A stretch of 64,000 nucleotides of DNA from Candidatus Anderseniibacteriota bacterium (GCA_016197005.1 JACPWO010000001.1:474544-538543); one strand, 5' to 3'. Numbered from the stretch's first letter, positions 23,318-56,508 are shown. Made by a program: numbers and translations. Notes: generated from the letters alone by a model not told the origin.

Positions 23318-23337
23318 TAACGACTAGAAAAACAAAA

Positions 23338-23366: not shown

Positions 23367-23382
23367 CGTTTTAAGGCTCCTG

Positions 23383-24382: not shown

Positions 24383-24429
<47 letters not shown>

Positions 24430-38811: not shown

Positions 38812-40338
38812 ATGAACATGCCTTCATTCCTTCGCCCAAAAAGGGCGTTATTCGCAGTTGTCGCTGGTGTTGTAATAGTTGTACTGGCATTACTTATATG
38901 GGTTAGCATAATCCTCCTGCGTCAATCAGCTAACAATGTCCCGGCCATTCCTTTTTTCGGCACCCTGCCTGGATCCGACATACTTCAACGGCTAGTTGAC
39001 CAGGGGACTACTCCAGCGCCCACATCGCCGACACCCACGAGTAGCGTTTTGGCTACGCCCACATTACCACCCACGTCAGTGGGACAAAATCTTGAGGTAA
39101 CAGTGACCTTCACACGAACACCTCAGTTTACATTTCATATAGAGAGTGTTGGCTTTACGGGAGATGCGCCAAACGTGGCTGATTTTGATCCCCGCAATGG
39201 TGATCGATTTTTTAATGTGAATGTGATCGGTACCAGCAATCAAACAATCGCCACGTATCCAACGATGATAGCAACTACCGAGATCGCGGAAAATGCAACC
39301 TCCGCTCAAATACGTCCGTATGATAATTCTCGTGCTCGAATTATATTGCCCGCCACTACTACTCCACTAACAGGAGTTGAGTTGCGTTCAGTAACTGGTG
39401 CCTTGCTTGATTCCCAAACTATTAGCAGTAGTGAGATATCACTGCTTGATATAAAAAGAAAGTTAGCGGCTTTGCGAGGCGCCTTTACTGGATGGCGTCC
39501 GGTTGTACTAGCACAAGATATTCCACTTGACGATCCTTGCCAGGCCCTAGCACCAGTTGATCCTGAAACCGGGCAGCCGCGAAGTCTTTCACACTACACG
39601 ATTGCAATTACTAATGAAGGAACGACGAAGAGCGAAGAGGAGGTAAAAGTAATTCTAGAACAGATTGAAACGCAGGCAGACGCAATGATCAGCACAATTT
39701 CTCCTTGGTCACTCTATGCTCCTTGTATTGATGCTGTCATTGCAGTAAACGACCAAACATTCGGTGATTGCGTTCTCACCCAGGGCGCATTCCCTTCTTG
39801 CCCTAATCAAAAAACCGTCCCACGTCAAGATGGAGATGTGTCAATTGTCGTTCACCTTGATACCCCTTGTGATTGCACTACTACTCCAGAAAATTTCCCG
39901 GCATATACCGTAGTGGGAACTGGTATCAGTACAAATATGCTTGCTCACGCCTTAGGCCACGCCACCGGCAAGATGACTGACGAATATTTGTATCAGCAAA
40001 ATAATACGTATTCACTACCGGGGAAAAATTGTTTTCCTACGCAAGAGGCTTGTTCGTCGTTCGCTTCGTCTTCTGGGATTGGTATTGAGTGCACCTCTGG
40101 CTGCAGCACGGTAGAAGAATACCGTCCCTCGACCGCTATTATGCACAAGACAATGACGGGGACATACGGCGAGTTTGAAACGTGTATTTTGCGCAATAAA
40201 CTGGCCCGAGCAATTGGTTTCCGTGCCGATGATGAAGGTGGCCACATTAATCCCGCCTGTGATGGGAGTGGCGGACAAAGTCGACCGCAAGATCCCGCCC
40301 CGCAAGGCGAGTACTTTGGTGGTCGGCGTGTATTCTAA
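38812..40338 (+). CDS. Secreted/membrane-anchored Cys-rich hypothetical protein; contains AHALGHATG metzincin-like (E-less) motif
   Basis: N-terminal TM anchor, PT-rich linker, multiple Cys pairs, HALGHATG segment. Confidence 0.55.
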   Translation: MNMPSFLRPKRALFAVVAGVVIVVLALLIWVSIILLRQSANNVPAIPFFGTLPGSDILQRLVDQGTTPAPTSPTPTSSVLATPTLPPTSVGQNLEVTVTFTRTPQFTFHIESVGFTGDAPNVADFDPRNGDRFFNVNVIGTSNQTIATYPTMIATTEIAENATSAQIRPYDNSRARIILPATTTPLTGVELRSVTGALLDSQTISSSEISLLDIKRKLAALRGAFTGWRPVVLAQDIPLDDPCQALAPVDPETGQPRSLSHYTIAITNEGTTKSEEEVKVILEQIETQADAMISTISPWSLYAPCIDAVIAVNDQTFGDCVLTQGAFPSCPNQKTVPRQDGDVSIVVHLDTPCDCTTTPENFPAYTVVGTGISTNMLAHALGHATGKMTDEYLYQQNNTYSLPGKNCFPTQEACSSFASSSGIGIECTSGCSTVEEYRPSTAIMHKTMTGTYGEFETCILRNKLARAIGFRADDEGGHINPACDGSGGQSRPQDPAPQGEYFGGRRVF

Positions 40339-40347
40339 CTGCATCCA

Positions 40348-42147
40348 ATGATTGAATCATTTCTCACGATAATTCTTGCTCCCTTGATTGCTCTGGCAGC
40401 AACACAGCAAGTCTCTATTGTCCCACAAGATACACAGTATGGGGCACTAGCAGCCGCGCAGATATATAACAGCGGATTTTCGACTAACCCAGTCGGAGGA
40501 TCAGTACCAACAGCAGCGCGCGGAACACTAACCGCGTTTCTTATTACAAACCAAGAACACGGAACGCCAGGGGAGCCGGTGGTGGTACGAGCATTGATTC
40601 GTAATGATAGCGCCGGTCCCGCTCGAGATGTAGCGGTAGAACTTTTAGCAGAAGGCGGACTTGAAATAACATCCGTCGAACCAACGGCGGATGATCAAGA
40701 CGAAGACTCACTAACCTGGTTTGCACCTGATATTATTCCTTATGAATATCTGACATATGATATTACTTTCGCTACTTCTTCGCCCGGCCATCTTACCTTG
40801 CGCGTGCAATATCAGAATACAGACGGCAAAGCTTCCGTAGAAACAACTCGGGGGTTAGTGGCGGCTGACGAAGATACCAACCCGACGGAAGAATCGTCTC
40901 CCAGCAGCGCATCTCCGACGCTCGGCGTTAACTTTCAAACCGCGCTGAAAAACGGCACGTATGTCATATTCTGCGGTGATGAAAATGACAGTGAGTGCGC
41001 TGAAAAAAAACCGACACTTGGTAGTCGGTTTAACGAAGCGGTTGCTTCGATCGAACCCGGGGAATGCCGAGTAAACAGTGACGATATCATTGTGACCCCC
41101 GAATATCACGATGCGCTTGGACGAAAATCTCGGCCAGCAGCATATTTTATGTTTCCACTATACGAATCCGGTCAAGATTTTAAGAAATTAGTAGTAGAAA
41201 ATGAAATTGATGGCATTAAAAACATCATTGCAGTCCGCCGCAAACTACTCCCCATATGGCTCGCTTGCGTAAATAAAAAGCAGACACAGGCAGATTGCAA
41301 CCAAACATTAACGGAAGCTCAAAAGAATTTGCTCAAGGATTATGAGGCCATTCAAGATCGGCGGAAAGACCGATTTTCGCCCATTGCTAAACAAGCAGTT
41401 AATAATGCGAATGAATCAATTCGCCGTTCATGCGGTGTTGATTCCGAAAACAACTTACAAGGACCTATCGATGGTGTCCAAAAAGTCTACGAAAGCACAC
41501 TAGATGCTCGAGAGCAGGCCTATACGCCAACGCAAGCTACTTTTATTGCTCTTCTGGGAAACCCGCGTGATGTCAAAGACCCATATAGTGTGTTCGGATA
41601 CGCCCTAACAAACTCCTATCAAGCACACACAACAATTGATAAAAGTCGGGACGAAGCAGTTCGGCTGGAGAATTGGGAAGTCATGCTCGACTCTCCCAAG
41701 ACAGACGCAACGACCTGTGAGAAGGAAATTGTATTTAAAGAACGAGTAGAACGAACCGCTTGCGAGTCTGGTAATTACACGCAAGATATAATCCGAGATG
41801 CTCCAACGCCCGTGAAAGCGAGGCAAGGGTCCATTCAACCACCAAATATTCCTGGTAACATTCCAGAACAATATGCTAACAAACAAACCGTTACCATTGA
41901 AGATCAAGCGCTCGTCGGCGAAGTGTGCGGAGGCCGTCCCGGAGATCCGTATTGGGCCGCCGATTGTTCCTGTAAATGTAACGATGTTTTGAGCTCAGCT
42001 GGCAACGTAATTCCCAAAGGTGATGCAACTGGTGCTGGATTTAACTTATGCCAAGGACAAAAAGAAATAACCCGTCATGATATTTTTGTTACCGATCAGG
42101 CTGAATGCTTAAAACAAGGAGACGAAAGCGATGAAGAATCCTTTTAG
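40348..42147 (+). CDS. Secreted hypothetical protein with Cys-rich C-terminus
   Basis: N-terminal hydrophobic signal/anchor; no known motif; tight spacing within co-directional block. Confidence 0.55.
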   Translation: MIESFLTIILAPLIALAATQQVSIVPQDTQYGALAAAQIYNSGFSTNPVGGSVPTAARGTLTAFLITNQEHGTPGEPVVVRALIRNDSAGPARDVAVELLAEGGLEITSVEPTADDQDEDSLTWFAPDIIPYEYLTYDITFATSSPGHLTLRVQYQNTDGKASVETTRGLVAADEDTNPTEESSPSSASPTLGVNFQTALKNGTYVIFCGDENDSECAEKKPTLGSRFNEAVASIEPGECRVNSDDIIVTPEYHDALGRKSRPAAYFMFPLYESGQDFKKLVVENEIDGIKNIIAVRRKLLPIWLACVNKKQTQADCNQTLTEAQKNLLKDYEAIQDRRKDRFSPIAKQAVNNANESIRRSCGVDSENNLQGPIDGVQKVYESTLDAREQAYTPTQATFIALLGNPRDVKDPYSVFGYALTNSYQAHTTIDKSRDEAVRLENWEVMLDSPKTDATTCEKEIVFKERVERTACESGNYTQDIIRDAPTPVKARQGSIQPPNIPGNIPEQYANKQTVTIEDQALVGEVCGGRPGDPYWAADCSCKCNDVLSSAGNVIPKGDATGAGFNLCQGQKEITRHDIFVTDQAECLKQGDESDEESF

Positions 42148-42895
42148 CAGTCCGGCTACCTGGGTGGCTATTAGTTTTTTAGCAGTCGGTATTTTTCTCC
42201 TTGCTTGGTGGTATAGCAGCCAGGATACGACTGCGTTTCCTGCCAATACTCCATCTCTAAAAACAATTGCGCAAAAAATACTGGAGCCAGTGATGCCGAC
42301 TACTATTCCGGCTGAACCCAATGATGCGTTTACTACCTATCTAGAAGCGGCGACCGGAATATCCGAACAAACCTCTTATACGGCTCGATACAAACTATAT
42401 GCTGGCGTTACCGGTCAGATAACAGAAGGGCTTTCCCAAGAGGAAGAGGTAGCTGCATATGTTGAAGAAGAGAGAAAAAACTTACTGCCTTCAGACTTTG
42501 CAATTCCGCCGCTGGACGCGACGGCTACCGAAGTTACTGCCTACCAACAATCTATCTCACCTACCGCAAACCCAGCGATAACTGCGGTTACGAGCCCAGC
42601 GATTGCGGATGCCTTTCGTAAGTATTTTCAGAACCCCACCACCTCTGCCCTAGATAGGATTAATCAAGATCTCGAAACCACCATTGCTGAACTCAATCGC
42701 ATAGCTGTGCCTGAATCTTTGCGCCCTTGGCATACTGAATACATTCATCTCCATGCGCTCCTGTTAGAAAATATCCAGCTTCTTAAAACAATGCCAGAAG
42801 ATCCCATCGGTGGTCTCGTTGCCGCCCGGAATATTCAAGAACTCGGTGATCGCTTCAACCAACTAGCGAAGGCGCTCAATACGCTGGTACCATAA
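42131..42895 (+). CDS. N-terminally anchored hypothetical protein, paralog family member A
   Basis: N-terminal TM; C-terminal ~70 aa similar to the next two genes (IAELNRIAVPESL...LLENIQLLKTM). Confidence 0.55.
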   Translation: MKNPFSSPATWVAISFLAVGIFLLAWWYSSQDTTAFPANTPSLKTIAQKILEPVMPTTIPAEPNDAFTTYLEAATGISEQTSYTARYKLYAGVTGQITEGLSQEEEVAAYVEEERKNLLPSDFAIPPLDATATEVTAYQQSISPTANPAITAVTSPAIADAFRKYFQNPTTSALDRINQDLETTIAELNRIAVPESLRPWHTEYIHLHALLLENIQLLKTMPEDPIGGLVAARNIQELGDRFNQLAKALNTLVP

Positions 42896-42901
42896 GAAGT
42901 C

Positions 42902-43801
42902 ATGCCTTCTTCAATCAACCGTTTAGGAATAGTGGTCGCTGGTATTGCGGCGCTTGTCATCGTTGCCATTTGGACCCTTTTCATGGGTACACGAGCAGTG
43001 TGGCGACACTTTCATGAACCTGCACCGATCGCGACAGAAGAACATAAAACTGACGTATTATCCGATCAGGACACGGACCAAGACGGCTTAAGCGATGACT
43101 TAGAACCCATATACCGCAGTAACCCAGTTGTTGCTGATACTGACCTGGATGGGACAAACGATGGTGACGAGGTAGTAGCCTTACGCGACCCAACAACTGC
43201 TGGGCCAGACGATGCACTTTTTCCAGAAAACGTCACAAATAACGCCCTTAATGAGAATACGCTGACAAATAAATATCTTCAGACTCTCCCCGCCGATGCG
43301 CCTAGAGAAGAAGTGCTGTCGCCAGAAAAACTTGAAGGATTTGTCGATCAAAATCGCCAACAATTTCTTCCTCAACCTGCTTCTATCCTCATAAAAACCA
43401 CAACCGAGGAGGGGAGAGCAGCAATTGAGGCCTATTTAAACACTGTCTCTTCTTCGCACAATACTAAACTCGTTTTTATATCGAGCGATGACATTGCTCA
43501 GGCATTTCAAAAAAGCTTTGGGCAAGAACAGCATGCTGACTTAGACGCCATTATTGAAAAATTAAAAGCAAATATTGCCATTTTAAAAGAGGCGGCCGCA
43601 CCCGCTGAAGCGGCAGAATTACACAAGAAGCTTGTAGCTGCCAGTGAAGCCCTACTCCAGAACGTACAACTTCTGCGAAATATGAAGGTAGACTATGTAG
43701 CGGGCTTGATTGGTGCAAAAAATCTAGAAGGATTGGCGACAACGTTCACTGAGATAACTACGAGTATTAAAGACCTCGAGTCGAAGTACGGGCTTGAGTA
43801 A
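42902..43801 (+). CDS. N-terminally anchored protein with Asp-rich calcium-binding (thrombospondin type-3-like) repeats, paralog B
   Basis: DQDTDQDGLSDDLE and DTDLDGTNDGDE repeats; C-terminal region paralogous to genes A and C. Confidence 0.55.
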   Translation: MPSSINRLGIVVAGIAALVIVAIWTLFMGTRAVWRHFHEPAPIATEEHKTDVLSDQDTDQDGLSDDLEPIYRSNPVVADTDLDGTNDGDEVVALRDPTTAGPDDALFPENVTNNALNENTLTNKYLQTLPADAPREEVLSPEKLEGFVDQNRQQFLPQPASILIKTTTEEGRAAIEAYLNTVSSSHNTKLVFISSDDIAQAFQKSFGQEQHADLDAIIEKLKANIAILKEAAAPAEAAELHKKLVAASEALLQNVQLLRNMKVDYVAGLIGAKNLEGLATTFTEITTSIKDLESKYGLE

Positions 43802-43815
43802 GCTATACTAACGCC

Positions 43816-44778
43816 ATGTCACGGCGAATTGTTATCGCCATCCTAGTGGTCCTTATCCTTGGTGTCCTTGCCGGTACCGTGTGGCTTGTTATTTCTCGTT
43901 TACGCGCAAACGCTCCCACGGACACAGCCAATGACACCACTCCGGGAACATTGGAAGAAGCTCCTACAGGTGGCCAAAATATAGTAAATCCTACCGGTGA
44001 TGATGACGGGGATGGTCTTTCAAATGCCGATGAGTCTATTTGGGGAGCTGATCCTAAAAATGCCGATACTGACGCAGATGGGTTTAAGGATGGCGAAGAG
44101 GTACGCAATAGCCATAATCCAACGATTGCTGGGCCAAACGACATCCTACCGGATGGATTTACACCAGGAAAAGAAATAACACCTATTGAAGCCGCTCCGG
44201 CTCAACCAATTGCGGTTGACCAGTTTTTTGAAGAGAATGTAAATTTAGAAATTGCGCCAGGTAGAAATTTAACTCTGGAATATGAAAGCAAATACCCAGA
44301 AGATCAGCGAACAGAGGCCAGTTTAATGGATTTTGTCTATCAACAATCTATCGAAGTAAAACTGCCCACCCCTTCCGTTAACTCAACAAATATTTTACAA
44401 CGAGAAGCGAACGCTGCCGACATTAATGCATATGTAGAAGAAGTGGGAAGTTTAGATTTCTTAGGAAACGAGCAAGTAATACAACTAGCGTTGAACGAAC
44501 TACTCAACAATGAAGATCCAACTCTAATTCAAAGTCAAGCAGTACAATTGCAGGTATATCAACAGCTTTTAATTAAGACCCCCGTACCTAAACAAGCAGA
44601 GAGTGTTCACAAATTACTACTAGGCTATAGTGAACTTGCAACAGCCACTTATAATCAAGCCGCTCTTCACCCCGTTGATCCCGTGAAAGCCCTTGTAGCT
44701 ATAAACCAACTCGAATTGATAAATGGGCAATATTTGCCTTTAATTGAACAAGAATTAAATCGCCTTCTCTTAGACTAG
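43816..44778 (+). CDS. N-terminally anchored protein with Asp-rich calcium-binding repeats, paralog C
   Basis: DDDGDGLSNADE and DTDADGFKDGEE repeats; conserved C-terminal helical region shared with A and B. Confidence 0.55.
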   Translation: MSRRIVIAILVVLILGVLAGTVWLVISRLRANAPTDTANDTTPGTLEEAPTGGQNIVNPTGDDDGDGLSNADESIWGADPKNADTDADGFKDGEEVRNSHNPTIAGPNDILPDGFTPGKEITPIEAAPAQPIAVDQFFEENVNLEIAPGRNLTLEYESKYPEDQRTEASLMDFVYQQSIEVKLPTPSVNSTNILQREANAADINAYVEEVGSLDFLGNEQVIQLALNELLNNEDPTLIQSQAVQLQVYQQLLIKTPVPKQAESVHKLLLGYSELATATYNQAALHPVDPVKALVAINQLELINGQYLPLIEQELNRLLLD

Positions 44779-44860: not shown

Positions 44861-46720
44861 ATGTCCTTCTTTCGCCCTGCTTTTTATGCTGTTGGCTTCC
44901 TAATAGTATTTGGCATTCTTGTTGCCGTTCCGAAAGCACACGCAGATCCACATGCAATGTTCTATACCGCAATTGGTCAACAGCAACTCTTTTTTAACGT
45001 TTTAGCAGCCTTGGACCAGGCAGATTATGTTGAGCCATCTACCAACACAACTGGAACTGATTCAGGAAGTTCTCGGGAAGAACTTATAAAAGAGCGTGAT
45101 GAGGCAGCTAAAGCACTTACTGAAGGTGAAACTGGATATCCAGCTGAAGATTTTCCAGTACTAAAAGCAACTGAGAGCGATCTAGCTTCAGTCTTAACTC
45201 GTAATATTTCACTTGAGGGACAAGATATTTGGACTAGTTATTTACTACGGGAAGCTGTGAAGGAAGAGGAGCGACGAGAACATTTTGAAAAACTCACTGG
45301 CATCTTATGTAACATAAGTCAGGGAGCATGTTCTGGTGAAAAAACTCCAAGAGAAGCGTTTGAAACAAGCCCTTTTGAAAAGGCTGTTAATTCCATTACA
45401 AACGGTGCAGTTGGCGCTCTCTTTTCAAGTAACGATCCTAATAGTTACGATCAAGAACGTCGCCGTAAGGCTTTAGAAGATCAGTTCAAAGGAGACGCAG
45501 CTGAATCTATTCCATACCGTGCGGATATCGCTGCGCTAGAGTCAGCCACAAGTGGAGATGTAACAAAAAAAACAACAATTACACAGCTCAAAAATGCTCA
45601 GCTCCGCGGACTACGAAACCCTGTGATAAATCCAAACGCTTTAAGTGGTATTGTTTTTGACCCCGAGACACAAGAACCCTCCCTTGCGTTTGATGAAAGC
45701 AGTGAAGAGTATGATGTTTCTGCATTTACTGGTTCTATTAGTAATTTCCTAACTCTTAATCAGGCGCTTGGTTCAGCCGCGTCAGAGGGAGCAAATAAGA
45801 GCATCGCAAGCAAAAACAGCACAACAGAAGACGGGGGGTACTTAGCAGAAACTATTCAAGCTGCTCGTCCTGCTGGGAACGGAGCAATTGGAGAACTATC
45901 GCCGCGAATACTTCGTCCAGCTGGTGCGGGTCCAGCTGTATTATCAGGAGTAATTTCTAGCTTAGGAATTTCTGAAGGTATTCCCTCTGATGTCAAATTA
46001 AGCGACAAGGAAGACAGCAAGGACGAAGACTGTGATATTAAAAAGGACGGGATCTGTGTAAAGAATAACAGCCCGATTTGTTTTGTAGGCGGCAGCTCTC
46101 TAACCGTTTCGTTTACCCTGAGTAGTACTGGCGGAGAGTCAAAAGCAGGAGTAGTAGCTTTATACCCAACCCAGCACGATGGCGAAATAGGAGGACCAAT
46201 TCGCGATCCGTCTTACTCTCCTCCGTCTAATAATTTTTACGGTAGCAGCGGAAGATCTTGGGGTAATCAATCTATTGGTAATCAAACATACTCTGTATCC
46301 GGAACAGCACAAGTAAACGGTGTACTTGGATATCGCATCCTCTTTAGATACGGTCAAAGCAGTTCCGTTGCTGCAACTTTAATTATTCCTGAGTGCAATG
46401 CCACTACTAGAAGTACCGATCAAAGTCGAATCTTTGGAGCCCAAGACTCGGTCACTGTTAGTCCTTCTTCACCTACTCCAGAAACAATCAATTCACCTGT
46501 AAATGGTTCGGTTTTAGGTACACGAGAAGACTTAAGGAGTGCGGACAATGATTATCTTCCTTTGCATGAGGAAAGTTATGAAGCTCAGAGCTTACTGCAA
46601 GCCCTATCACCGCTTCATTATCAACGCAAAAAACCTGGAAATTCTAGTTCCGGTGGTACCGTCAGTGGGGCAAGCACTACTTCTTATTTTCAGCAGGCGA
46701 TTACTAACTACTTCAAATAG
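44861..46720 (+). CDS. Secreted hypothetical protein (619 aa)
   Basis: N-terminal signal/anchor (FYAVGFLIVFGILVAVPKAHA), Ser/Gly-rich, no known motif. Confidence 0.5.
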   Translation: MSFFRPAFYAVGFLIVFGILVAVPKAHADPHAMFYTAIGQQQLFFNVLAALDQADYVEPSTNTTGTDSGSSREELIKERDEAAKALTEGETGYPAEDFPVLKATESDLASVLTRNISLEGQDIWTSYLLREAVKEEERREHFEKLTGILCNISQGACSGEKTPREAFETSPFEKAVNSITNGAVGALFSSNDPNSYDQERRRKALEDQFKGDAAESIPYRADIAALESATSGDVTKKTTITQLKNAQLRGLRNPVINPNALSGIVFDPETQEPSLAFDESSEEYDVSAFTGSISNFLTLNQALGSAASEGANKSIASKNSTTEDGGYLAETIQAARPAGNGAIGELSPRILRPAGAGPAVLSGVISSLGISEGIPSDVKLSDKEDSKDEDCDIKKDGICVKNNSPICFVGGSSLTVSFTLSSTGGESKAGVVALYPTQHDGEIGGPIRDPSYSPPSNNFYGSSGRSWGNQSIGNQTYSVSGTAQVNGVLGYRILFRYGQSSSVAATLIIPECNATTRSTDQSRIFGAQDSVTVSPSSPTPETINSPVNGSVLGTREDLRSADNDYLPLHEESYEAQSLLQALSPLHYQRKKPGNSSSGGTVSGASTTSYFQQAITNYFK

Positions 46721-46726
46721 AGTTAC

Positions 46727-48808
46727 TTGATGCCATCACTCAAAAAACTTTACCGACCACTACAGCTCCTTCTGATTGGAATGAGTTTTGCTTTTCCGGG
46801 TGGTGCCTCAGCAGAAGAAGTTTACGACATCAGAAACGCAGAACCCATGTACGTCCTTACTTACAATAAGGCAACTCTTATTAGCCAGTACGGGTGTCAA
46901 GAAGTACCAACAGAAGATCGAGTTAATGATTTAGGGTTTGTTGCCTTTGTTATTCCTGATGGTCAAGTGCTAATTAAAACAGTAGAAAGTGAAACCGGGC
47001 AAAATGCTCAAGCAACCAAAAAAGTGTTTGCGTTTGCGTGGGCAATGTGCACAGAAGCACAAGCAGAGGCGGCTTATAAATCACAACCTCAAATTGAAAC
47101 CGGTATCACGCTGGAAGGTGTCCAATATTACGCAGCACAAATAATAAGTTCGGTATTGTGGATGGTAGCCGAAATCGGATTATGGCTACTACAACTTGCC
47201 AGTAAGCTGCTTTTTCCGGTTTTAACCGCGGGGGCTTTTATTACGAACGATATCGTACAAAAGGGGTGGCCTTTCATCCAAGGCTTGGCAAACCTTGGCT
47301 TTATCCTAGCGTTACTAGCAATAGCAGCTTTAACTGTCCTGCGTATTGACGTTGGCGGCGGAGTAAAGCGGCTGCTTCCTCGCCTTTTGATTGCTGCACT
47401 GCTTATTAACTTCAGCCTTGTTATAGGCGGGGTTATTATCGATTCCTCTCGAGTTGTTATGGCTATTTCTTGGCAAATCCTTAAAGGTAGTTCAGGGGCA
47501 ACTCCAGATAAATTAGGGGCTCGGATCATAGATAATTCTCAGCTTATGAAGAATGTTTTTTGTCCGGTAGGATCAGGGGCAAATGCATCATGCGTAGGTG
47601 GTAGCTTCGAGCTTCAGGGGAAAATATATACAACCTGGGATGGTGTTTTAAAAGTTGCAGAGGCAACAATATTTATTTGGGTCATCACAGGAGCCTTGCT
47701 CGTGCTGGCAATTATGCTCTTCATACGCCACGTGGCTCTATTACTACTCCTTATAGTTTCTCCCTTGGCGTATCTGGCTGCCGCGATGCCAGCAGCTGGT
47801 AAATTTGCCTCGCAATGGTGGGAAAATTTCTTGCGATACGTTATTTATGGTCCGGTAGTCATGCTTATTCTCACAATCATTGCTGCCTTAACCGAATCCG
47901 AGAGTGCGGGTGCTGGAATCGATGTAAAATCTTCGTCACTGCGAAATATTATGGAAATGTCGGTGGTTACAGTCTTGATCATAGTAGCAGCAACTGCGGG
48001 TAAATATGTTGGAATGTACGGAGCGGGAGCAGCAGTCGGATTTGTGAAGGGTTTACCAGGACGCGCAGCTAGAAATCCCAAGAAAACTGCCGCCTTAGCT
48101 GCTGGCATTGCTACCGGAGGGCTTGGGTTAGTTCCTAGTCTAGCCGCTGCCGGCGGAACAGCCTATGGAATACGACGCACACAAGATGCCTGGAAAAAAT
48201 TCCAAACTGGTAGAAAGAAAACCCAAGAAAAGAAAGAAAAAGCCTCCTTTATGCAAAGAGCGGGCGAAGTCGGTTTTCGCAAAGCAACCAAAGAAGCAAG
48301 AGGTAGAAATGAAGCATTCAGAGACGCTCGAGTGCAGGGAGATCTTAGTCGCTTAAGTAGAGCTGAACTTACTACCAACCCAGCTCTTTCTCCAGAAAAA
48401 CTAGCTAATCCTTCATTCCTTACGGGGTTAGGAAAATCTAATATTCAAGAAATATTGAAACGAGGAACCAGGAGCCAGCGTGTCGGAATTGCAGCCAGTG
48501 TTGGATCTATGAAGCAAGAATCACCTGCCATGAAGACCGTAATTGACGGGGTAATTAACCAACAAACATTTGATGTTTACAACAGTGCTCAACAAGTTAT
48601 TAATGACCCTACTGCCACCCAAGGAGCAAAAGACAAGGCTGCAAATGAAATTGATGGTATTAATCGTGTTCTGCGCAGTTTGGCAAACAACGAAAAACTT
48701 GTTGATAAAATGGATGCAGGTCAGATACAGCAAATGCTAGAACACGAAGATACGAAAACCACAGATGATCTTTTAAAGAGCCTTAGTAAGACACGGTCTA
48801 GCGGATAA
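46727..48808 (+). CDS. Polytopic membrane protein, VirB6/TrbL-like candidate (T4SS-like inner-membrane component) with Lys/Ala-rich C-terminal tail
   Basis: Signal peptide, ~120-aa extracellular domain, >=6 TM helices, ~230-aa hydrophilic tail; lies next to a VirB4-like ATPase. Confidence 0.5.
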   Translation: MMPSLKKLYRPLQLLLIGMSFAFPGGASAEEVYDIRNAEPMYVLTYNKATLISQYGCQEVPTEDRVNDLGFVAFVIPDGQVLIKTVESETGQNAQATKKVFAFAWAMCTEAQAEAAYKSQPQIETGITLEGVQYYAAQIISSVLWMVAEIGLWLLQLASKLLFPVLTAGAFITNDIVQKGWPFIQGLANLGFILALLAIAALTVLRIDVGGGVKRLLPRLLIAALLINFSLVIGGVIIDSSRVVMAISWQILKGSSGATPDKLGARIIDNSQLMKNVFCPVGSGANASCVGGSFELQGKIYTTWDGVLKVAEATIFIWVITGALLVLAIMLFIRHVALLLLLIVSPLAYLAAAMPAAGKFASQWWENFLRYVIYGPVVMLILTIIAALTESESAGAGIDVKSSSLRNIMEMSVVTVLIIVAATAGKYVGMYGAGAAVGFVKGLPGRAARNPKKTAALAAGIATGGLGLVPSLAAAGGTAYGIRRTQDAWKKFQTGRKKTQEKKEKASFMQRAGEVGFRKATKEARGRNEAFRDARVQGDLSRLSRAELTTNPALSPEKLANPSFLTGLGKSNIQEILKRGTRSQRVGIAASVGSMKQESPAMKTVIDGVINQQTFDVYNSAQQVINDPTATQGAKDKAANEIDGINRVLRSLANNEKLVDKMDAGQIQQMLEHEDTKTTDDLLKSLSKTRSSG

Positions 48809-49413
48809 TGACTCTTATGCCGTCTACTAACTTCTCTGGTATACCTGCCGCATCCTTGGTAATGATTCCCGAGGATAGACGCGCAGAATATATTCGAGCG
48901 CTACGAGCGCTACCTGTAACTTTACTTAAGGCTACTACTTCCGCAAAAACTGGTGCCTACATACTAGGTCTAGCAAAAACGCATGATATCCCCTTGGCAC
49001 AAGTAGAGAATATTTCTTTTGCTATATTTGAAATATTAATTGGCAAAAAAATATTAGTTCAGTTACCTAGTATTTTTTCAACCGAGCTACAGGTTGCTAA
49101 TGACAAAGCTCAGACAATGGCAAGAGAAGTAGAACGTGACTTAATTGCTCCTATATCGTCCGAATTAAATCGATATCTAGCTGATCAAAAAAAAATACAA
49201 GGAAGCATAAGTTCTAAGATTGGAAAGCAAAAATCTAAGCCAGTAGCTACTTCTCCAGCGTTGTCACCAACAACCAACTCAAAACCGGAAATTAGAACAT
49301 TTTCCACCCCTCCATCATTAAAGCGAATACCAAATAAACCTGCAATTCCTCCAAACATTCTTGATCTAAAAAAGAAGTGGGAACAACCAAAGCCCCCACC
49401 AATTCCCAACTAG
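48808..49413 (+). CDS. hypothetical protein, Pro/Lys-rich C-terminus
   Basis: 201-aa ORF translationally coupled to the upstream gene (overlapping stop/start). Confidence 0.4.
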   Translation: MTLMPSTNFSGIPAASLVMIPEDRRAEYIRALRALPVTLLKATTSAKTGAYILGLAKTHDIPLAQVENISFAIFEILIGKKILVQLPSIFSTELQVANDKAQTMAREVERDLIAPISSELNRYLADQKKIQGSISSKIGKQKSKPVATSPALSPTTNSKPEIRTFSTPPSLKRIPNKPAIPPNILDLKKKWEQPKPPPIPN

Positions 49414-50102
49414 CGTTCTGTTTCCTCAATTTTTAGCTGTCCAACGTCGTGTAATCTCTGATTGTGGGATGTCATTGGGTTATAGAAGTTATAAAACAGC
49501 TCTAAAAGTTCAGGGGTTTTTAAAGGTACGGCCCGTAGTCCAATTGCTCGCAGACCGCTAGCCACTTGCTCAACCCGTTGATACAACTGGGCACGATAAT
49601 GTCCAAATTCTTGCTCCGTAATTTTCTGGTTCCCGGTTGCTGCTTTTGCTCCTTTAAATATACGAGCAAAGAATCCTTCTTTGGAGGCTTGAGTAACTGA
49701 AAATGGGATAGTTACAAAAAATGTTTTTGTCATAATACTACTGTCTTTTACTAATTCACTGACGAAGTTAATATATTCTCCCATTTGAACTCGGAGCAGC
49801 TCATTTTGTTGTTTTTCCCGTAGTACCTTGACTTCTTCGAGATAGGGGGTGATATCTGCTTTGCGAGAAGAAATAGTTATCTGAATAGGATAATCAAGAG
49901 AGTTGAGAAAGTCTTGGTAGGCAAAGATAATAGCACTCTGTTCGTCTTCAGACTTTAGGGCGAAGTTAATCGAGGAAACCATAATGACTGCTCGCATTGT
50001 CCCATCATTCAATACTAGAACTCCATCTCGAATTTCTTTAAGACGCACCAGTACCTGGGAGGGTTTCCCTTTCTTCTCTGTTGATTTCATTTCATCGACC
50101 AT
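49410..50102 (-). CDS. hypothetical soluble protein
   Basis: 230-aa ORF divergent from the VirB4-like gene; no motif recognised. Confidence 0.45.
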   Translation of the reverse strand: MVDEMKSTEKKGKPSQVLVRLKEIRDGVLVLNDGTMRAVIMVSSINFALKSEDEQSAIIFAYQDFLNSLDYPIQITISSRKADITPYLEEVKVLREKQQNELLRVQMGEYINFVSELVKDSSIMTKTFFVTIPFSVTQASKEGFFARIFKGAKAATGNQKITEQEFGHYRAQLYQRVEQVASGLRAIGLRAVPLKTPELLELFYNFYNPMTSHNQRLHDVGQLKIEETER

Positions 50103-50106
50103 AGTT

Positions 50107-50553
50107 CTACTGAGGGACAGTTAAAGGATCTTCTTCATCTACTTTAGAAATATTACCTTCTGTTTCAAGCGAACGCGAGGTAGCTGCTAAAGCAGAAAAG
50201 TCTTCTTGGGCTGATCCACGAGCGATGAGTAATTCCTCCCACTCTGCATCCTGAATAACAAGAATGCGAGGGGTCTTTGTGCGCTGCCAGATATATAATT
50301 GGCCACTAGAGTAAAAGCGGAAAGCAGACGACACCGTTGAAGCGAGAGACTTACCATTAACTTTCCAATGAGCAAATGCGGCCGCTATACCCAGCACAGG
50401 GAAAGCAGCAGAAAAAAAGAGAGCAAGATCAGAAAACAAGAATACTGGCACTAGCGTTAGAGCCGCAGCTACATACATAAGAAACTGTTTTAGGGTAAGC
50501 GGCCCCAAAATTTTATCTTCAATATCAACAAACTGCGGTACCTGATAACGCAT
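50107..50553 (-). CDS. Small 2-TM protein, PrgI/VirB3-like candidate
   Basis: 148 aa; N-terminal MRYQVPQFVDIEDKILGPLTLKQF followed by two adjacent TM helices, as in PrgI/VirB3-type proteins. Confidence 0.4.
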   Translation of the reverse strand: MRYQVPQFVDIEDKILGPLTLKQFLMYVAAALTLVPVFLFSDLALFFSAAFPVLGIAAAFAHWKVNGKSLASTVSSAFRFYSSGQLYIWQRTKTPRILVIQDAEWEELLIARGSAQEDFSALAATSRSLETEGNISKVDEEDPLTVPQ

Positions 50554-50600: not shown

Positions 50601-52454
50601 ATGAGCATTGTGAAAGATGCCGTTTCTTACCTTCGCGGCAATAAAGGCGATAAAACCGCAGCTACAGCTGACCATAAAAAAGCTGAGGGAGAAAGCGAGC
50701 GCCAATTTAATGAAGGAATATCTTCATTGACGGATATTTTAGCTCCGGCCGGATATAAGGTGGGGCCACGCCATTTAGAAATAGACGGCAAGTATGTGAC
50801 TACTCTTTTCGTTACAACGTACCCCCGTTATTTAGACACAAACTGGTTTTCACCAATTGTGAACTTTGACGTTGAGTTTGACGTTTCCATGTTCATCTAT
50901 CCGCAAGATACAGCGGCTATGCTTAAAGTTCTTCTAAAACGAGTTACTCAGGTATCTGCCTCTATCTCCATGAAGACGGAGCAAGGGAAAGTTCGCGATC
51001 CACAATTAGAAACGGCTTACCAAGATATTGAAGAGCTGCGCGATCGACTGGTACAAGGCACGGAACGTTTTTACAAGTTCGGCATGTACTTAACTCTGTA
51101 TGCCGATAGCGAAAAGGACCTTGATGATGTGCTATCTCAGATCCAGGTACTTCTGGAGGGGCGCCTGGTATATGCCAAACCTGCGCTTTTCCAAATGGAC
51201 CTGGGCTTTACTTCCACACTTCCATTAGGAAATGATCGACTTGCAGTAAATACCAACATGAATACTTCACCTCTTTCCACAACATTCCCATTTGTTAGCT
51301 CCGACTTAACAAGTAATTCTGGTGTTTTATATGGCATTAACCTCCACAACAGCAGCCTTGTCTTATTTGATCGTTTCAGTTTGGAAAACGCGAATATGGT
51401 CATATTCGCCAAATCCGGTGCGGGTAAAAGCTATACGGTAAAGCTTGAAGTGCTGCGCTCTCTCATGTTTGGAACAGAAGTCATTATTATTGATCCGGAA
51501 CAAGAGTATCGCTATCTATCAGAGGCAGTGGGAGGAAGTTACTTAAAAATTGCTATTGCGTCTGATCACCGTATTAATCCCTTCGATCTACCAGAATTAA
51601 ACGAAGATGAAGAACCAGACTCAGTTCTTCGTGAAAACGTTATCCGCCTTATTGGTCTTGTTACTCTCATGGCTGAAGGACTTTCTGCTGAAGAGCAGTC
51701 GGTCGTAGATAAGGCCCTCTGGGAAACATATGCTTTGAAAGACATAACGCCAGGCGTTCGCTGGCAAAAACCAGAGGTACCTACTCTCCAAGACTTCTAT
51801 AACATCTTAAAAGAAATGGATGGGGGCACAAACGCTGCTACACGACTTCAACGATTCGTTGAGGGAACGTTTGCTGGCGTATTCAATAGACCAACCAATA
51901 TTGATCTAGATAAGCAGCTCGTTGTATTTAACATCCGCGACATGGAAGAGGAGCTGCGCCCGATTGCTATGCACGTTGTACTCGGATACATCTGGAATCG
52001 TGTGCGCTCGAAACTTAAAAGGCGCCTGTTAGTAGTAGATGAGGCGTGGATCATGATGAAACACGAAGAGTCAGCTAAATTCTTGTTTTCCATGGCGAAA
52101 CGCGCTCGTAAGTACTACTTAGGAGTCACTACTATTACACAAGATATTCAAGATTTCCTTGCATCAAAATATGGCAAACCAATTGTCACCAACTCCTCTA
52201 TCCAGCTTCTTTTACGGCAAAGCCCGGCAGCAATCGATATGTTAGCTCAGGTGTTTTACTTAACTGATCATGAAAAATTCCGTCTCCTGGAATCTGACGT
52301 AGGCGAAGGTATTTTCTTTGCTGGTTTAAAACATGTGGCAATCAAAGTTATTGCGAGTTACGCAGAAGATCAGATTATTACTTCCGATCCACGGCAAATT
52401 TTAGCTATTGAAGCCGCTAAGAAGGAAATGCAAGAGCAAGAACTTACTAACTAA
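50601..52454 (+). CDS. VirB4/TraC-family T4SS-like ATPase
   Basis: Walker A FAKSGAGKSYTV; Walker B LLVVDEAWIMM with the VirB4-characteristic DEAW; ~600 aa, no TM. Confidence 0.75.
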   Translation: MSIVKDAVSYLRGNKGDKTAATADHKKAEGESERQFNEGISSLTDILAPAGYKVGPRHLEIDGKYVTTLFVTTYPRYLDTNWFSPIVNFDVEFDVSMFIYPQDTAAMLKVLLKRVTQVSASISMKTEQGKVRDPQLETAYQDIEELRDRLVQGTERFYKFGMYLTLYADSEKDLDDVLSQIQVLLEGRLVYAKPALFQMDLGFTSTLPLGNDRLAVNTNMNTSPLSTTFPFVSSDLTSNSGVLYGINLHNSSLVLFDRFSLENANMVIFAKSGAGKSYTVKLEVLRSLMFGTEVIIIDPEQEYRYLSEAVGGSYLKIAIASDHRINPFDLPELNEDEEPDSVLRENVIRLIGLVTLMAEGLSAEEQSVVDKALWETYALKDITPGVRWQKPEVPTLQDFYNILKEMDGGTNAATRLQRFVEGTFAGVFNRPTNIDLDKQLVVFNIRDMEEELRPIAMHVVLGYIWNRVRSKLKRRLLVVDEAWIMMKHEESAKFLFSMAKRARKYYLGVTTITQDIQDFLASKYGKPIVTNSSIQLLLRQSPAAIDMLAQVFYLTDHEKFRLLESDVGEGIFFAGLKHVAIKVIASYAEDQIITSDPRQILAIEAAKKEMQEQELTN

Positions 52455-52463: not shown

Positions 52464-52886
52464 ATGGCTACGTACAACGCAGAATCCCAAAATGCAGCAC
52501 GCTTAAATTTTGATCGCCGTCTCAGCCAGACACAACCGCAAGGTACTTCATCAAATCGAAATCCAGCAAGCAATTTAGCGAGCCGATTACCAGGCGCGTC
52601 AATGGCACAACGTCTGGGCCTTAACAAAAACCAGAGAGCGCAGAGAAAACAACCACAAGATATAAGCGAGAAAGCACTATCAACCGCACTGACTGCAGCA
52701 AAATTTGTTGCTAAAAGACTTGCGTGGATGCTTATGACGTGGCTATTCGGAATTCTCATCTGGCTTGCTCCATGGATACTACTTATTTCCTTAGTTCTGC
52801 TTATAATTATTGTTATCTTTGATGCAGGCGCCCTCGAAGCAGCTCGAGACACCTTCGTAGAATTGACCGTAAAAAGTCACCCATAA
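52464..52886 (+). CDS. Small membrane protein, hypothetical (T4SS-like module)
   Basis: 140 aa, long C-terminal TM hairpin (WMLMTWLFGILIWLAPWILLISLVLLIIIVIF). Confidence 0.4.
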   Translation: MATYNAESQNAARLNFDRRLSQTQPQGTSSNRNPASNLASRLPGASMAQRLGLNKNQRAQRKQPQDISEKALSTALTAAKFVAKRLAWMLMTWLFGILIWLAPWILLISLVLLIIIVIFDAGALEAARDTFVELTVKSHP

Positions 52887-52888
52887 TT

Positions 52889-53350
52889 ATGAGAACAAAA
52901 ATCCTATTTTCTCTTTTTGTTACCCTGCTTACATTCAGTGGGATACTTATTAATTCTATTCCCGTACTCGCACAGGACGAGGAGGATCCATGCGCAGAGA
53001 GTCCATTCGGATGTTTTGAAGCTCCTTTACCGGGCATATTTGATGGAAAAATTCTTGATTATGTAAAAGATAATGAAGGAAGTGCCCTAACATCTTACGT
53101 TGGCACTGTTGTTGAGTTTGTTACCGCTACGATTATCATCGTTGGCCTCATTCTTATTGTGGGCGGAGGTTATGTGTATATGACTGCTGGGGGCAGCGCT
53201 GAACGCGTAGGAACCGCTAAAACAATGATTGGCTCTGCTTTGCTAGGAATAGTTCTGGCCTTAGTAGCAGTTCTTATCTTAAATACGCTTAGCCCTCAAT
53301 TTGCTGAGCAGGCAAAAGAACCTTGTATTGGCGAAGACTGCCCAGAGTAA
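52889..53350 (+). CDS. Pilin-like protein (VirB2/TrbC-like topology)
   Basis: Signal peptide (cleavage near VLAQDE), then two hydrophobic helices (VVEFVTATIIIVGLILIVGG; IGSALLGIVLALVAVLILN); Cys at both ends. Confidence 0.45.
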   Translation: MRTKILFSLFVTLLTFSGILINSIPVLAQDEEDPCAESPFGCFEAPLPGIFDGKILDYVKDNEGSALTSYVGTVVEFVTATIIIVGLILIVGGGYVYMTAGGSAERVGTAKTMIGSALLGIVLALVAVLILNTLSPQFAEQAKEPCIGEDCPE

Positions 53351-54503
53351 GAGCTATTAATACAAAGTGTAGTATCGCTAAATCGTTCTTCCAAAAGATA
53401 GTGTCAGTAAAACCAAAGAGTATTAATACAAATAAAGCTAAAGCCACAGAAAACTTGAGACCTCTTTGGTAAAATATCCAGACGTGAAGAACAAGAAAGG
53501 CTCCTACCCCCACTAATCCGGTATTAAGCCAAAAAGAGAGAACCAAACTATGTGGATCCCTATACACAAATTCACTAAGTGGCTTTTTTTGTGATCTAGA
53601 GTTTTTAAAACTCTCAAAACGCTCGTGAAGTTTTCCTTGGTATGCCGGCTCAAAAGTTCCCAGCCCAATGCCAAGGATTGGGTTTTCTCGAATGAGTTCC
53701 CCCGAAATATCCCATAGTTGTAGTCGAACATATGCAGAACTGGCTGGTTGTAATAAGTAACTCGTCTTTTGAACGCTCACCCATACCGCAATCACCAACA
53801 AAATACTTACTGAGATTAAGACGAGAGGTTTTCTTGTTAACTGTATGTGTGGACGTAATGAGATTGTTCCTAAAAAAAGAACTACTATCACTGTCAGAAT
53901 ACCAGCCAGTGACTTTGTTCCCAGCAGGGCTATAAACATGGTACCGGCCATCAAGTAATTGATCTGCCATCCTCCAATTTTTATTCTTGTAAAAACGGCC
54001 AATACAATTAACGGCGCAAGAAAAAGTGCCAGGGATGCAGGGACATCATACACGCTCCGAATTCGATCAAGTGTTCCAATCTGACTAATGCCAATAAGCG
54101 CCACCACTACCCCTGATGTAATAAGCGCATTTAAGATATAGTCTCGTATCTTAGGAAATCTCCAAGTAGCTATATATACCTGAGCGGCATATAGCAAAGG
54201 GACTAATATCCACCCTTTTAAAACTCCAAGACTCGTCTCAGGGTGAGGAGAAATGATAGTAGAAACAACTGCTGCTGCAACAAAGAGAAGGAGACAAGTA
54301 GCTACTGGCCATGGTAGGACCCACATAACTTCTTTCCAACTTCGCCTCATTGTGGGTTGCAGAAACCCTGCAATTGTCACCCCAATAATCAGCACCTCAA
54401 GTACGTTTGTAGGAATACCCAATACGGAAAACCGCACCAGATACGTCGGTAAGAGAGCGGCTATCGCTATGAGGCCGTATCGGTAGAGAGGCTCAGTGCC
54501 CAT
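53289..54503 (-). CDS. Polytopic membrane protein, O-antigen ligase/Wzy-like candidate
   Basis: ~10-12 TM helices with a larger loop; adjacent to GT2 and Wzx genes. Confidence 0.45.
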   Translation of the reverse strand: MGTEPLYRYGLIAIAALLPTYLVRFSVLGIPTNVLEVLIIGVTIAGFLQPTMRRSWKEVMWVLPWPVATCLLLFVAAAVVSTIISPHPETSLGVLKGWILVPLLYAAQVYIATWRFPKIRDYILNALITSGVVVALIGISQIGTLDRIRSVYDVPASLALFLAPLIVLAVFTRIKIGGWQINYLMAGTMFIALLGTKSLAGILTVIVVLFLGTISLRPHIQLTRKPLVLISVSILLVIAVWVSVQKTSYLLQPASSAYVRLQLWDISGELIRENPILGIGLGTFEPAYQGKLHERFESFKNSRSQKKPLSEFVYRDPHSLVLSFWLNTGLVGVGAFLVLHVWIFYQRGLKFSVALALFVLILFGFTDTIFWKNDLAILHFVLIALTLGSLRQYKVLLPAQQIEG

Positions 54504-55792
54504 AAAATGCTTAAAGTAATAAGGAGATGTACATACAAAAAGCTATTAAGAAATTGAGAGTGAATAAGAAGCGTCAGAAAACAACCAAGCGGAGCAAGTA
54601 AGGGGAGAGCCCTTTCACTCAGAAATCGCCGCCATGTTTGTTGCAGGCCATATGTCCATGGAAGAAGAAACAAGATAACTCCTGGTATTCCAGTTGTAAC
54701 CCATAACATAAGCCAGCTGTTATCTACCCCGGCTCGAGAATGGAGAGAGAAGTCCGAAGCAAGACCTGCCCTGGCTGCTGCAAATTGATAGCTATTATAC
54801 CCAACCCCCACGAGAGCTGTCGTCGAAGCAAATTCTTGCCACACTGCTCTCAGTGACTGTAGCCGCAATTGAACAGTGGAATCATGCGTTATTGTTCCCA
54901 CCAGCCGATCGCCGAGTATCCACCCGGCTATGCTTACACTCACTAGCCCCAAGGCTCCAACGAGAACAATCTGAAGGATCCTATGCTTCCGATATATTGC
55001 GCCCGCAGCAGATACATACCGCCAGACAAGGAGGGGAGACATAAGTAAGCCGGCTGCCGCCAGCGCAATCAAGCTGCTGCGAGACTGGGTTAGGGCGAGA
55101 GCTAAAAAACTAGCCCCTATAAGAAAAGCACGCTGAATGGTCCAGCGTGCATTTGCGCCCCAAAAAATAAGCATGAGCATAAAAAACCCACCCAGGAAAT
55201 TCGGATCAAGCCAACTCGCAACCAGTCGCTTCTCGTGTGGATCCCAGCCCGTGCCAACCCAAGCTGGCAGATCATGTATGTTTGGCAGAATGAGTATCTG
55301 TAAAAATCCAAGAACAAGTAAAGCGACTGTAGCCCCCATCAAAATTTTATGGGCAAATCGTCGCAGCAGTGGATCCTGGAACAGAAGTAAAAGTGCCGGC
55401 AAGAGGAGAAGGTAAGAAGTAAGACGAAATAGGTAAGATATCGAAATGATTGATACCGACGTATCCATCGAAGGTAGGTGAATAACAAGTGTAAACAAGG
55501 ACCACATAAGAAATGGGAGAAGGAGCAAACCGTGATAAGTAGCTGTCCTACTTATCTGTTTTCTCTGCAGAACTCGCATGCTGCTAGCTACTAGTATAAG
55601 AATAACAGCCACGTCGCTGAGTAAGAGTCCTCCCGCTTGTCCGAAGACTGGAATACGTAAGACCTGCCCAGTGATAAGGGATATTCCGAGTATTCCAATG
55701 GCTATCCGTGGGAATACTACTGACCACCACCCTAACGGGAGTAAGGCGAGACCAAGCGGTATAAATGGCGCAAAAATCGCTGTAATAGCCAT
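54467..55792 (-). CDS. Polytopic membrane protein, O-antigen polymerase/ligase-like candidate
   Basis: 441 aa, >=10 TM helices; polysaccharide-cluster context. Confidence 0.45.
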   Translation of the reverse strand: MAITAIFAPFIPLGLALLPLGWWSVVFPRIAIGILGISLITGQVLRIPVFGQAGGLLLSDVAVILILVASSMRVLQRKQISRTATYHGLLLLPFLMWSLFTLVIHLPSMDTSVSIISISYLFRLTSYLLLLPALLLLFQDPLLRRFAHKILMGATVALLVLGFLQILILPNIHDLPAWVGTGWDPHEKRLVASWLDPNFLGGFFMLMLIFWGANARWTIQRAFLIGASFLALALTQSRSSLIALAAAGLLMSPLLVWRYVSAAGAIYRKHRILQIVLVGALGLVSVSIAGWILGDRLVGTITHDSTVQLRLQSLRAVWQEFASTTALVGVGYNSYQFAAARAGLASDFSLHSRAGVDNSWLMLWVTTGIPGVILFLLPWTYGLQQTWRRFLSERALPLLAPLGCFLTLLIHSQFLNSFLYVHLLITLSILWALSLSTDTAS

Positions 55793-56508
55793 ATCGATGG
55801 AGAATAGTGCTTTTTGAAGTACTTGTCTGCAGAGGCATCATATAGCCGGGCTTTCACTCGCTTATTACTCAAGCTTGCTCCACGTTCATGCCGTACTTTT
55901 ATCGTCGGCTCAATTACTACTTTCCACCCACCAACACGCGCCCGGCGACATAGGTCAACATCCTCCCAATACATGAAGAACTCTTCATTAAAGCCCTTTA
56001 GTTGTTCAAATGTCTGTCGGCGAATAAGCATGGCTGCTCCAGAGACCCAATCTGGCAATTGGTATTCCGATTGGTACGTTTTTCCTTTTTTAATAAGTGA
56101 CCATAGCGTTGGCTCCATGCCATACGCAAAGGTTTCTGGTTTACCATCAGAATCTTCTAAACCCAATCCGATAATACCTATTTGTGGGTCAGCTTCGAAT
56201 ACGGCCGTAGCAACGTCGAGCGAACTTTGTAACTCGGCATCAGGATTGATGAAAAGGAAATACGCAGGAAGCGTGGCTTGGTTAATAAGAGCAGCTACTC
56301 CCTGATTTATTGCCGCTCCAAATCCCTTGTTAGTAGCATTTACGATTGCAGTAACCGAAAGGGTATGTAATATCTCAACTGTTTTATCTTGAGAGGCGTT
56401 ATCAACGATAACGATACGAGAAATATTCGCCCGCTGCAGACTTTGTACACACTTTGTGATCGTGTGCTCATTGTTATGGGTAACAATAGCGACAGCAGTT
56501 TTGTTCAT
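55732..56508 (-). CDS. Family 2 glycosyltransferase
   Basis: AIVTHNNEHTITKCVQSL...IVIVDNASQD GT-A N-terminus, DxD-like motif. Confidence 0.8.
   Translation of the reverse strand: MNKTAVAIVTHNNEHTITKCVQSLQRANISRIVIVDNASQDKTVEILHTLSVTAIVNATNKGFGAAINQGVAALINQATLPAYFLFINPDAELQSSLDVATAVFEADPQIGIIGLGLEDSDGKPETFAYGMEPTLWSLIKKGKTYQSEYQLPDWVSGAAMLIRRQTFEQLKGFNEEFFMYWEDVDLCRRARVGGWKVVIEPTIKVRHERGASLSNKRVKARLYDASADKYFKKHYSPSIWLLQRFLRHLYRLVSPYSR

Follow-up and report, generated by a model that had tools for sequence, protein, structure and literature searches.

The window analysed here is a stretch of 64,000 nucleotides (nt) from the chromosome of a Candidatus Anderseniibacteriota bacterium (GCA_016197005.1 JACPWO010000001.1:474544-538543), a lineage of the Parcubacteria group within the Patescibacteria group, and this report concerns three tandem genes on its plus strand, termed A, B and C, which lie in a gene cluster for a type IV secretion system (T4SS)-like machine. 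An earlier note, made from the sequence alone, had proposed these genes as a tandem family of anchored proteins, and the open reading frames (ORFs) were found on the plus strand at the positions that it gave. Protein B is identical to an NCBI entry (HYR90_05055) that is annotated as a 'hypothetical protein' in a Candidatus Andersenbacteria metagenome-assembled genome. The three genes, with the transmembrane (TM) anchors, thrombospondin type 3 (TSP3) loops and helical modules of their products, are as follows:

42131..42895, plus strand: paralog A, 254 aa; TM anchor at about residues 9-31, no TSP3 loops, helical module at about residues 73-252 (nt 42347-42886)
42902..43801, plus strand: paralog B (HYR90_05055), 299 aa; TM helix at residues 5-37, TSP3 pair, helical module at about residues 112-299 (nt 43235-43798)
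43070..43171, plus strand: the two TSP3 loops of B, DTDQDGLSDDLE (residues 57-68) and DTDLDGTNDGDE (residues 79-90)
43816..44778, plus strand: paralog C, 320 aa; TM anchor at about residues 5-27, TSP3 pair, a longer linker, helical module at about residues 147-317 (nt 44254-44766)
43999..44100, plus strand: the two TSP3 loops of C, DDDGDGLSNADE (residues 62-73) and DTDADGFKDGEE (residues 84-95)

A, B and C are true paralogs with an all-helical C-terminal module in common. By BLASTP, A and B align across 153 aa of their C-terminal parts (2e-18), and B and C align as whole proteins (2e-14), the repeats contributing much of this signal and the helical parts alone reaching 1e-3. The pairwise comparison of A and C was not significant (0.47), hence the homology of all three was established by profile comparisons. 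A hidden Markov model (HMM) of the module, built from 27 diverse family members with B left out, scored A (1.4e-35), B (9e-53) and C (7.8e-30) on the same profile positions, hhalign matched the B-clade and C-clade module alignments after removal of the repeats (96.8% probability, E 2.9e-10, 168 columns), and A matched the C-clade profile at E 3.8e-4. In AlphaFold2 (AF2) models, which have a pLDDT of 91.9 for B and of 79 overall for A (92-98 in the module), A and B share nine helices in the same order, shifted throughout by about 40 residues, which corresponds in length to the TSP3 insert absent from A, and the module ends in an up-down helical bundle. The shared helical region is thus present in all three proteins, as the earlier note had it, at a length of about 170-190 aa rather than about 70. 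The DNA shared among the paralogs is a single 43-nt repeat-coding stretch, and the duplications are therefore old; recent duplication or gene conversion was rejected on the same ground.

The module defines a large, previously undescribed Patescibacteria protein family, here named TSPH. Its size became visible through an exhaustive HMMER search, in which the module without the repeats was compared with 1.84 billion cluster representatives (50% identity), since word-indexed homologue searches returned few family members and mostly the TSP3 repeats of OmpA-family proteins. Matches to the family numbered 2,020 at E<=1e-3, 166 at <=1e-10 and 49 at <=1e-30, with nearly all members being 250-340 aa long, carrying the module at the C-terminus and sharing 15-25% overall identity. 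Architecture was counted in the best 150 matches: an N-terminal TM segment is found in 134 and a later one in none, exactly two DxDxDG motifs are present in 86 and none in 47, and the recurrent Pfam matches are limited to TSP3_bac (89/150) and a borderline DUF6376 (19/150, E<0.01). Five residues, T122, Y178, P234, H241 and D264 in B numbering, are kept in 89-99% of members, the last four being near-invariant; B and C keep all of them, as does A (T84, Y138, P194, H201 and D224). The accessible text and supplements of published Patescibacteria T4SS inventories do not mention the family.

The loops of B begin at residues 57 and 79 and those of C at residues 62 and 84, a spacing of exactly 22 residues in each protein. 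All four fit the 12-residue pattern DxDxDGxx[DN]xxE, and they are the only instances of it among the 114 six-frame ORFs of at least 80 aa in the window; A has no Asp-rich loops. Against Pfam TSP3_bac (PF18884), C yields two repeats at 1.5e-7 (31.5 bits, above the gathering threshold (GA) of 25), and B scores 13 bits, under this threshold, its motif being nonetheless intact. The model of B superposes in Foldseek on the Ca-binding repeats of Bap (7c7u) with a root-mean-square deviation of 0.8 Å and 50% identity, and the family profile, searched against the PDB, matches Bap at 3.2e-7 and both lanmodulin and an EF-hand protein at about 1.5e-3. The repeat segments of B and C are bona fide bacterial TSP3 pairs, and judging from motif and model their loops would bind Ca2+. 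Thus the TSP3-like half of the original description of these loops is borne out, whereas the dockerin-like half is not, as no Pfam Dockerin match was obtained at E<=0.1 for A, B or C, nor among the best 150 family members.

In each of the three proteins, hydropathy reveals a single hydrophobic span, which lies in the first ~35 residues, in agreement with the single N-terminal anchors first proposed. The anchor is a 23-residue hydrophobic span with charged flanks; the net charge of the TM flanks in the family is +2.8 on the N-side and +0.3 after the TM segment, and the positive-inside rule gives an N-in orientation for 111/134 members. The predicted topology is that of an N-in/C-out, type II bitopic protein with a very short cytoplasmic N-terminus (<10 residues), the loops and the helical module facing outward. 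A, B and C contain no Cys and so have no lipobox (130/150 family members are likewise Cys-free), and no LPXTG/sortase signal was found in them, their C-termini finishing in the helical module. Assignment as a lipoprotein, as a sortase substrate or as a protein with a type IV pilin-like leader was dropped in each case, as the supporting motif was not found. The N-terminal segment appears to behave as an uncleaved type II anchor, which argues against a released effector.

The genes downstream of the paralogs in the window form a Gram-positive-type T4SS set, comprising VirB4-like, PrgI/VirB3, TraC-N/TrsD-like and, with weak matches, VirB6-like and VirB2-like proteins. Together with the genes 5' of A, they are as follows:

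38812..42147, plus strand: u508 and u599, genes 5' of A in the T4SS unit; function unassigned, both conserved in the clusters of Andersenbacteria loci; u599 weakly matches a DUF11/CLIPPER-like profile
44861..49413, plus strand: u619, VirB6-like gene and u201, cluster genes 3' of C; u619 with an N-terminal hydrophobic segment, u201 with no PDB sequence match
46727-48808, plus strand: VirB6-like polytopic protein, weak TrbL match
49410-50102, minus strand: TrsD/TraC-N-like protein, orientation opposite to other loci
50107-50553, minus strand: PrgI/VirB3-like protein, orientation opposite to other loci
50601-52454, plus strand: VirB4-like ATPase, NF045971 (CD1110-family), 9e-110
52464-52886, plus strand: small membrane protein of the T4SS cluster, 3' of the VirB4-like gene
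52889-53350, plus strand: VirB2/TrbC-like pilin candidate, weak match

The genes are tightly packed, u599 and A overlapping by 17 nt and gaps of 6 nt and 14 nt separating A from B and B from C, and a promoter and terminator scan of the A-B-C block gave nothing above shuffled expectation. For comparison, 14 further loci were collected by exact-protein look-up, a species-genome scan and a metagenome scan and were annotated with the module HMM and the cluster proteins of the window, with locus searches by clade-restricted family alignments giving 6 and 2 loci. In 12 of the 12 loci with enough flank, the TSPH gene is co-directional with and upstream of the genes for u619-like, VirB6-like, (u201), PrgI, TrsD, VirB4 and pilin-like proteins. 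Linkage was assessed in the window, L001, L002, L004, L005, L007, L009, L010, L012, L014 and L016, with L006 and L011 being partial, and these loci span at least five diverged lineages, in which VirB4 identity to the window is as low as 52-58%. TSPH lies 6-9 genes upstream of virB4. One inventory defines the Patescibacteria T4SS gene cluster as components within 20 coding sequences of virB4 (PMC12102498), and TSPH falls within such a cluster, being near virB4, co-directional and conserved across lineages.

The start of the unit is best seen in L002, L004, L005 and L006, where a gene on the opposite strand lies upstream of TSPH, parting it from KsgA, and the next cluster gene begins 3-8 nt after TSPH; this places TSPH first in the T4SS unit, its position in the single-copy lineages. 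The operon order runs from TSPH through large exported proteins of unassigned function to VirB6-like, PrgI/VirB3, TrsD, VirB4 and the VirB2-like pilin, and the genes from TSPH to the T4SS components are presumably co-transcribed. The association with a T4SS-like module that the earlier note described therefore holds, except that the paralogs are not merely upstream of the module, but part of its probable transcription unit.

Several further observations were made within these clusters. In the window, the TrsD/TraC-N-like and PrgI genes on the minus strand (49410-50553) represent a local two-gene inversion within the T4SS cluster; the ten other loci with PrgI, TrsD and VirB4 have all three genes in one direction, and no flanking inverted repeats were found around the inverted segment. 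The u599 homologues in L009 (5232-8654) and L010 (5339-8734) are about 1,130-1,140 aa long, twice the length in the window (40348-42147). Genes of selfish-element type are present in two clusters, namely an 83-aa GIY-YIG ORF inside that of L001 (7435-7686) and a 23S_rRNA_IVP gene (PF05635) between cluster genes of L004 (9885-10247).

The copies of TSPH have distinct histories. Five lineages have one copy, and each of six complete Andersenbacteria-type loci has one B-type and one C-type copy. These are adjacent in the window, L001 and L014 and separated by a u599 homologue in L009, L010 and L012, hence the gene order of the cluster has been shuffled. In a neighbour-joining tree of the module, the B clade and the C clade each have 100% bootstrap support and the grouping of A with B has 99%, A being on a long branch. 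Among the loci compared, A is present in the window locus only, and no other representative is closest to A in an orthologue-like way; other repeat-less members are nearer to B than to A, so that the repeats must have been lost several times. A is an offshoot of the B lineage that evolves fast, lacks the repeats and is specific to its own lineage, and it is probably functional, though dispensable in relatives, because it keeps all of the conserved residues and has a good ribosome-binding site (AAGGAG, 8 nt upstream of its ATG). B-type and C-type copies originate from an ancient duplication and have both been retained. Among Andersenbacteria, the orthologues of B and of C are 34-47% identical, similar to PrgI, VirB6-like, u201 and pilin-like proteins, whereas cytoplasmic VirB4 (75-83%) and TrsD (56-81%) are far above this range; such a rate is the pattern expected of an envelope-exposed machine part. 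That every complete Andersenbacteria locus has kept B as well as C suggests non-redundant, possibly heteromeric roles.

In their tandem DxDxDGxxDxxE loops, 22-residue spacing and extracytoplasmic context, B and C resemble bacterial TSP3 proteins (PF18884), such as OmpA-family proteins and staphylococcal Bap (7c7r/7c7u). TSPH differs from these in having two repeats only, which are dispensable in about a third of members, in being tethered by an N-terminal TM anchor instead of a beta-barrel or cell-wall sorting signal, and in carrying the helical module in place of OmpA_C or another known partner domain; OmpA-family proteins align to B at the TSP3 segment only. Searches of NCBIfam and PHROGs gave nothing except repeat-driven CglD and MtsD matches. 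For the module, the only lead by sequence, a borderline one, is DUF6376 (PF19903), which B matches over residues 204-291, in the last helices of the module (profile positions 26-112 of 116) at 8.9e-6, with 26.4 bits against a GA of 27.3; A and C have no DUF6376 match. DUF6376 is the extracellular domain of Bacillus subtilis YybP, for which a part in sensing extracellular signals has been speculated (PMC13598126). Like TSPH, the lipoprotein YybP is membrane-tethered, has an outward helical domain and belongs to a monoderm-type envelope, but the tether of TSPH is a TM helix and not a lipid, its module is about twice as long, and DUF6376 has no known T4SS link. On the strength of this profile match the two are probably remotely homologous, with B scoring under the Pfam gathering score.

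Three kinds of known protein were considered for the module and rejected. VirB8-like proteins (PrgL/TraM/TcpC; SEML1_0012 of Southlakia) are similar in size (200-330 aa), in their N-in/C-out single-pass topology and in their position in the operon upstream of VirB3/VirB4, but have an NTF2-like alpha+beta fold and no Ca loops; as the TSPH module is all-alpha and the Southlakia cluster lists its own NTF2-like protein, this candidate was dropped, and no VirB8-like chain is among the PDB sequence or Foldseek matches listed for TSPH. VirB5/TraC minor pilus subunits are likewise all-alpha, exported and encoded with a T4SS, and the T4SS here also has VirB2-like pilins, which is unusual for monoderms; however, VirB5 is made with a signal peptide that is cleaved off and has the shape of a three-helix bundle with an appendage, whereas TSPH has an apparently uncleaved anchor with no cleavable signal peptide, no sequence similarity to VirB5/TraC, and no such protein among the Foldseek matches listed. 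The best Foldseek neighbours of the last ~125 residues are LytS-N (5xsd_L, prob 0.91, TMt 0.63), PcaY_PP (6s38, 0.87) and Adeh_2942, all at TMt 0.5-0.63 and at E~1, which is non-significant. Sensors of the 4HB_MCP type share with TSPH an extracytoplasmic, membrane-proximal location, but membership in this group, defined by a four-helix bundle that is flanked by two TM helices and coupled to a cytoplasmic output domain, was rejected on account of the single TM segment, the short cytoplasmic part, the missing Pfam match and these Foldseek values.

Taken together, the reading favoured here, at a probability of roughly 55%, is that TSPH is an undescribed extracytoplasmic structural or assembly subunit, or an accessory factor, of the Patescibacteria T4SS-like machine. 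A machine component rather than a variable adhesin is indicated by the small size (250-340 aa), the usually single copy, the fixed place at the operon head in all lineages covered and the four near-invariant residues. In such a subunit, the TM helix would tether TSPH beside the VirB6/VirB3/VirB4 translocon, and the Ca-loaded TSP3 pair may serve as a short, rigid spacer or stalk, by analogy with TSP3-containing envelope proteins of the OmpA family. The partners of the helical bundle would then be further exported proteins of the cluster (u619, VirB6 loops, pilins) or the wall, and the roles of B and C could be non-redundant, perhaps heteromeric. We infer both physical membership in the machine and the spacer and contact mechanism.

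Several points weigh against the proposal of a machine subunit. Membership in the machine rests on gene order, and in many loci the synteny of KsgA, UvrD and an M23/LysM peptidase is just as strong, so that synteny alone is no proof of function, an objection softened by the divergent gene that four or five lineages have between KsgA and TSPH. The helical module matches neither T4SS subunits nor solved structures by sequence or fold, its PDB sequence profile giving only a spurious 14-3-3 match (E 0.009). The TSP3 repeats have been lost repeatedly (47/150 members lack them), therefore the core role cannot depend on Ca binding, and the proteome table of Southlakia, the only Patescibacterium studied genetically, contains no TSP3-annotated protein, hence TSPH is not universal to Patescibacteria T4SSs. 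Finally, fast evolution and paralog expansion would also suit a host-contact protein. The more specific proposal, that TSPH is a core lineage-specific T4SS envelope subunit whose stalk or collar depends on Ca2+ (and in Andersenbacteria is a B/C heteromer), replaces missing VirB5/VirB8/VirB10-type parts and connects the translocon with the VirB2-like pilus that is unusual in monoderms, is put forward tentatively and is doubtful as it stands.

The earlier suggestion of 'adhesins or secreted effectors' fits poorly with the apparently uncleaved anchor, the fixed operon-head position and the near-invariant residues, although a role in surface contact keeps some likelihood. As a surface adhesin or host-contact factor, TSPH would present its helical bundle on a Ca-dependent stalk to a host-cell or matrix ligand, with the paralogs widening specificity, for which the predicted extracytoplasmic location, the low sequence conservation, the copy number of one to three and the occurrence of TSP3 repeats in adhesion and cohesion proteins (including the weak, repeat-borne CglD and MtsD matches and the Bap match) could be cited, as could the fact that no adhesin has so far been found for the Patescibacteria T4SS (PMC12102498). 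This reading is nevertheless improbable: only ~180 aa follow the stalk on a protein anchored in the cytoplasmic membrane, so that it must still cross or sit in the wall; most lineages have a single copy; the first-gene position is fixed; the four near-invariant residues are not accompanied by any hypervariable region; and the orthologues of B and of C are stable 1:1 between genomes, with no turnover.

Two other readings are less probable still, and about equally so. An extracytoplasmic sensor or gate regulator, whose bundle would sense Ca2+ or a host ligand and modulate the T4SS via TM-TM contacts, would accord with the only recurrent fold neighbours being periplasmic four-helix-bundle sensor domains, with the Ca-binding-type loops next to the membrane and with the borderline similarity to the DUF6376 domain of YybP (PMC13598126), but four-helix bundles are generic and every fold match is at E~1, there is neither a second TM segment nor a cytoplasmic output domain (<10 cytoplasmic residues), and Pfam 4HB_MCP is not matched. 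Alternatively, TSPH could be a general envelope protein unrelated to the T4SS and carried in a conserved, origin-proximal block (M23-UvrD-KsgA...), given that the locus has the same housekeeping neighbours in many lineages, that the protein has no homology to T4SS parts and that KsgA is frequent near virB4 in Patescibacteria, as reported earlier (PMC12102498). Against this, the opposite-strand gene before TSPH and the 3-8 nt to the next cluster gene in the four loci named above attach TSPH to the T4SS side, the copies in L009, L010 and L012 are interleaved with other cluster-specific genes, and the genes from TSPH to VirB4 all encode co-directional membrane or exported proteins. That TSPH is a secreted effector or T4SS substrate is very unlikely, since this acidic, Cys-free protein, although encoded next to a secretion system, has a charged-flanked 23-residue anchor that looks uncleaved (in C, the sole AxA-like site, ANA, is followed by Pro), is conserved at a fixed operon position in deeply diverged lineages and carries TSP3 loops that imply Sec-type export outward rather than T4SS delivery from the cytoplasm.

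Elsewhere in the window, the segment directly after the T4SS cluster (53289-56508, minus strand) encodes a tandem pair of Wzy_C (O-antigen ligase-like) membrane proteins together with a GT2 glycosyltransferase, which may be surface-polysaccharide machinery beside the secretion system. The rRNA operon is unlinked and interrupted, with the 16S and 23S genes lying 3.9 kb apart (18406-23760) and the spacer holding tRNA-Ile, a helix-turn-helix protein, an enzyme of the CCA-adding/poly(A) polymerase family (20713-22149), a minus-strand tRNA-Ala (22409-22480) and an MscS-like protein. The 23S rRNA span (23760-27482) exceeds the Rfam model by about 800 nt. A group I intron lies within it at 25851-26102 (70 bits), and a second match of group I intron type, at 26769-27082, scores 45.6 bits, under the GA of 50; the span has no internal ORF of at least 120 aa and hence no obvious homing endonuclease.

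The Patescibacteria T4SS-like machine has proved essential in the single species tested so far, and its role is described as 'completely unknown' (PMC11665869, PMC12857230). Published inventories list VirB4, TrsD, VirB3, VirB6, VirB2 arrays and rare VirB8/VirB1 homologues, with no adhesins found and most neighbours unassigned (PMC12102498). TSPH is a large family that is absent from those inventories, and in several diverged lineages its gene comes first in the operon; it does not amount to a new kind of system, and we infer its function. The family offers a defined target, with a structure model at pLDDT 92, a predicted outward topology, putative Ca loops and four near-invariant residues, and its profile gives annotators a new means to recognise these operons. 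If TSPH is indeed a core stalk or collar subunit, it would provide a handle on how an essential machine is built.

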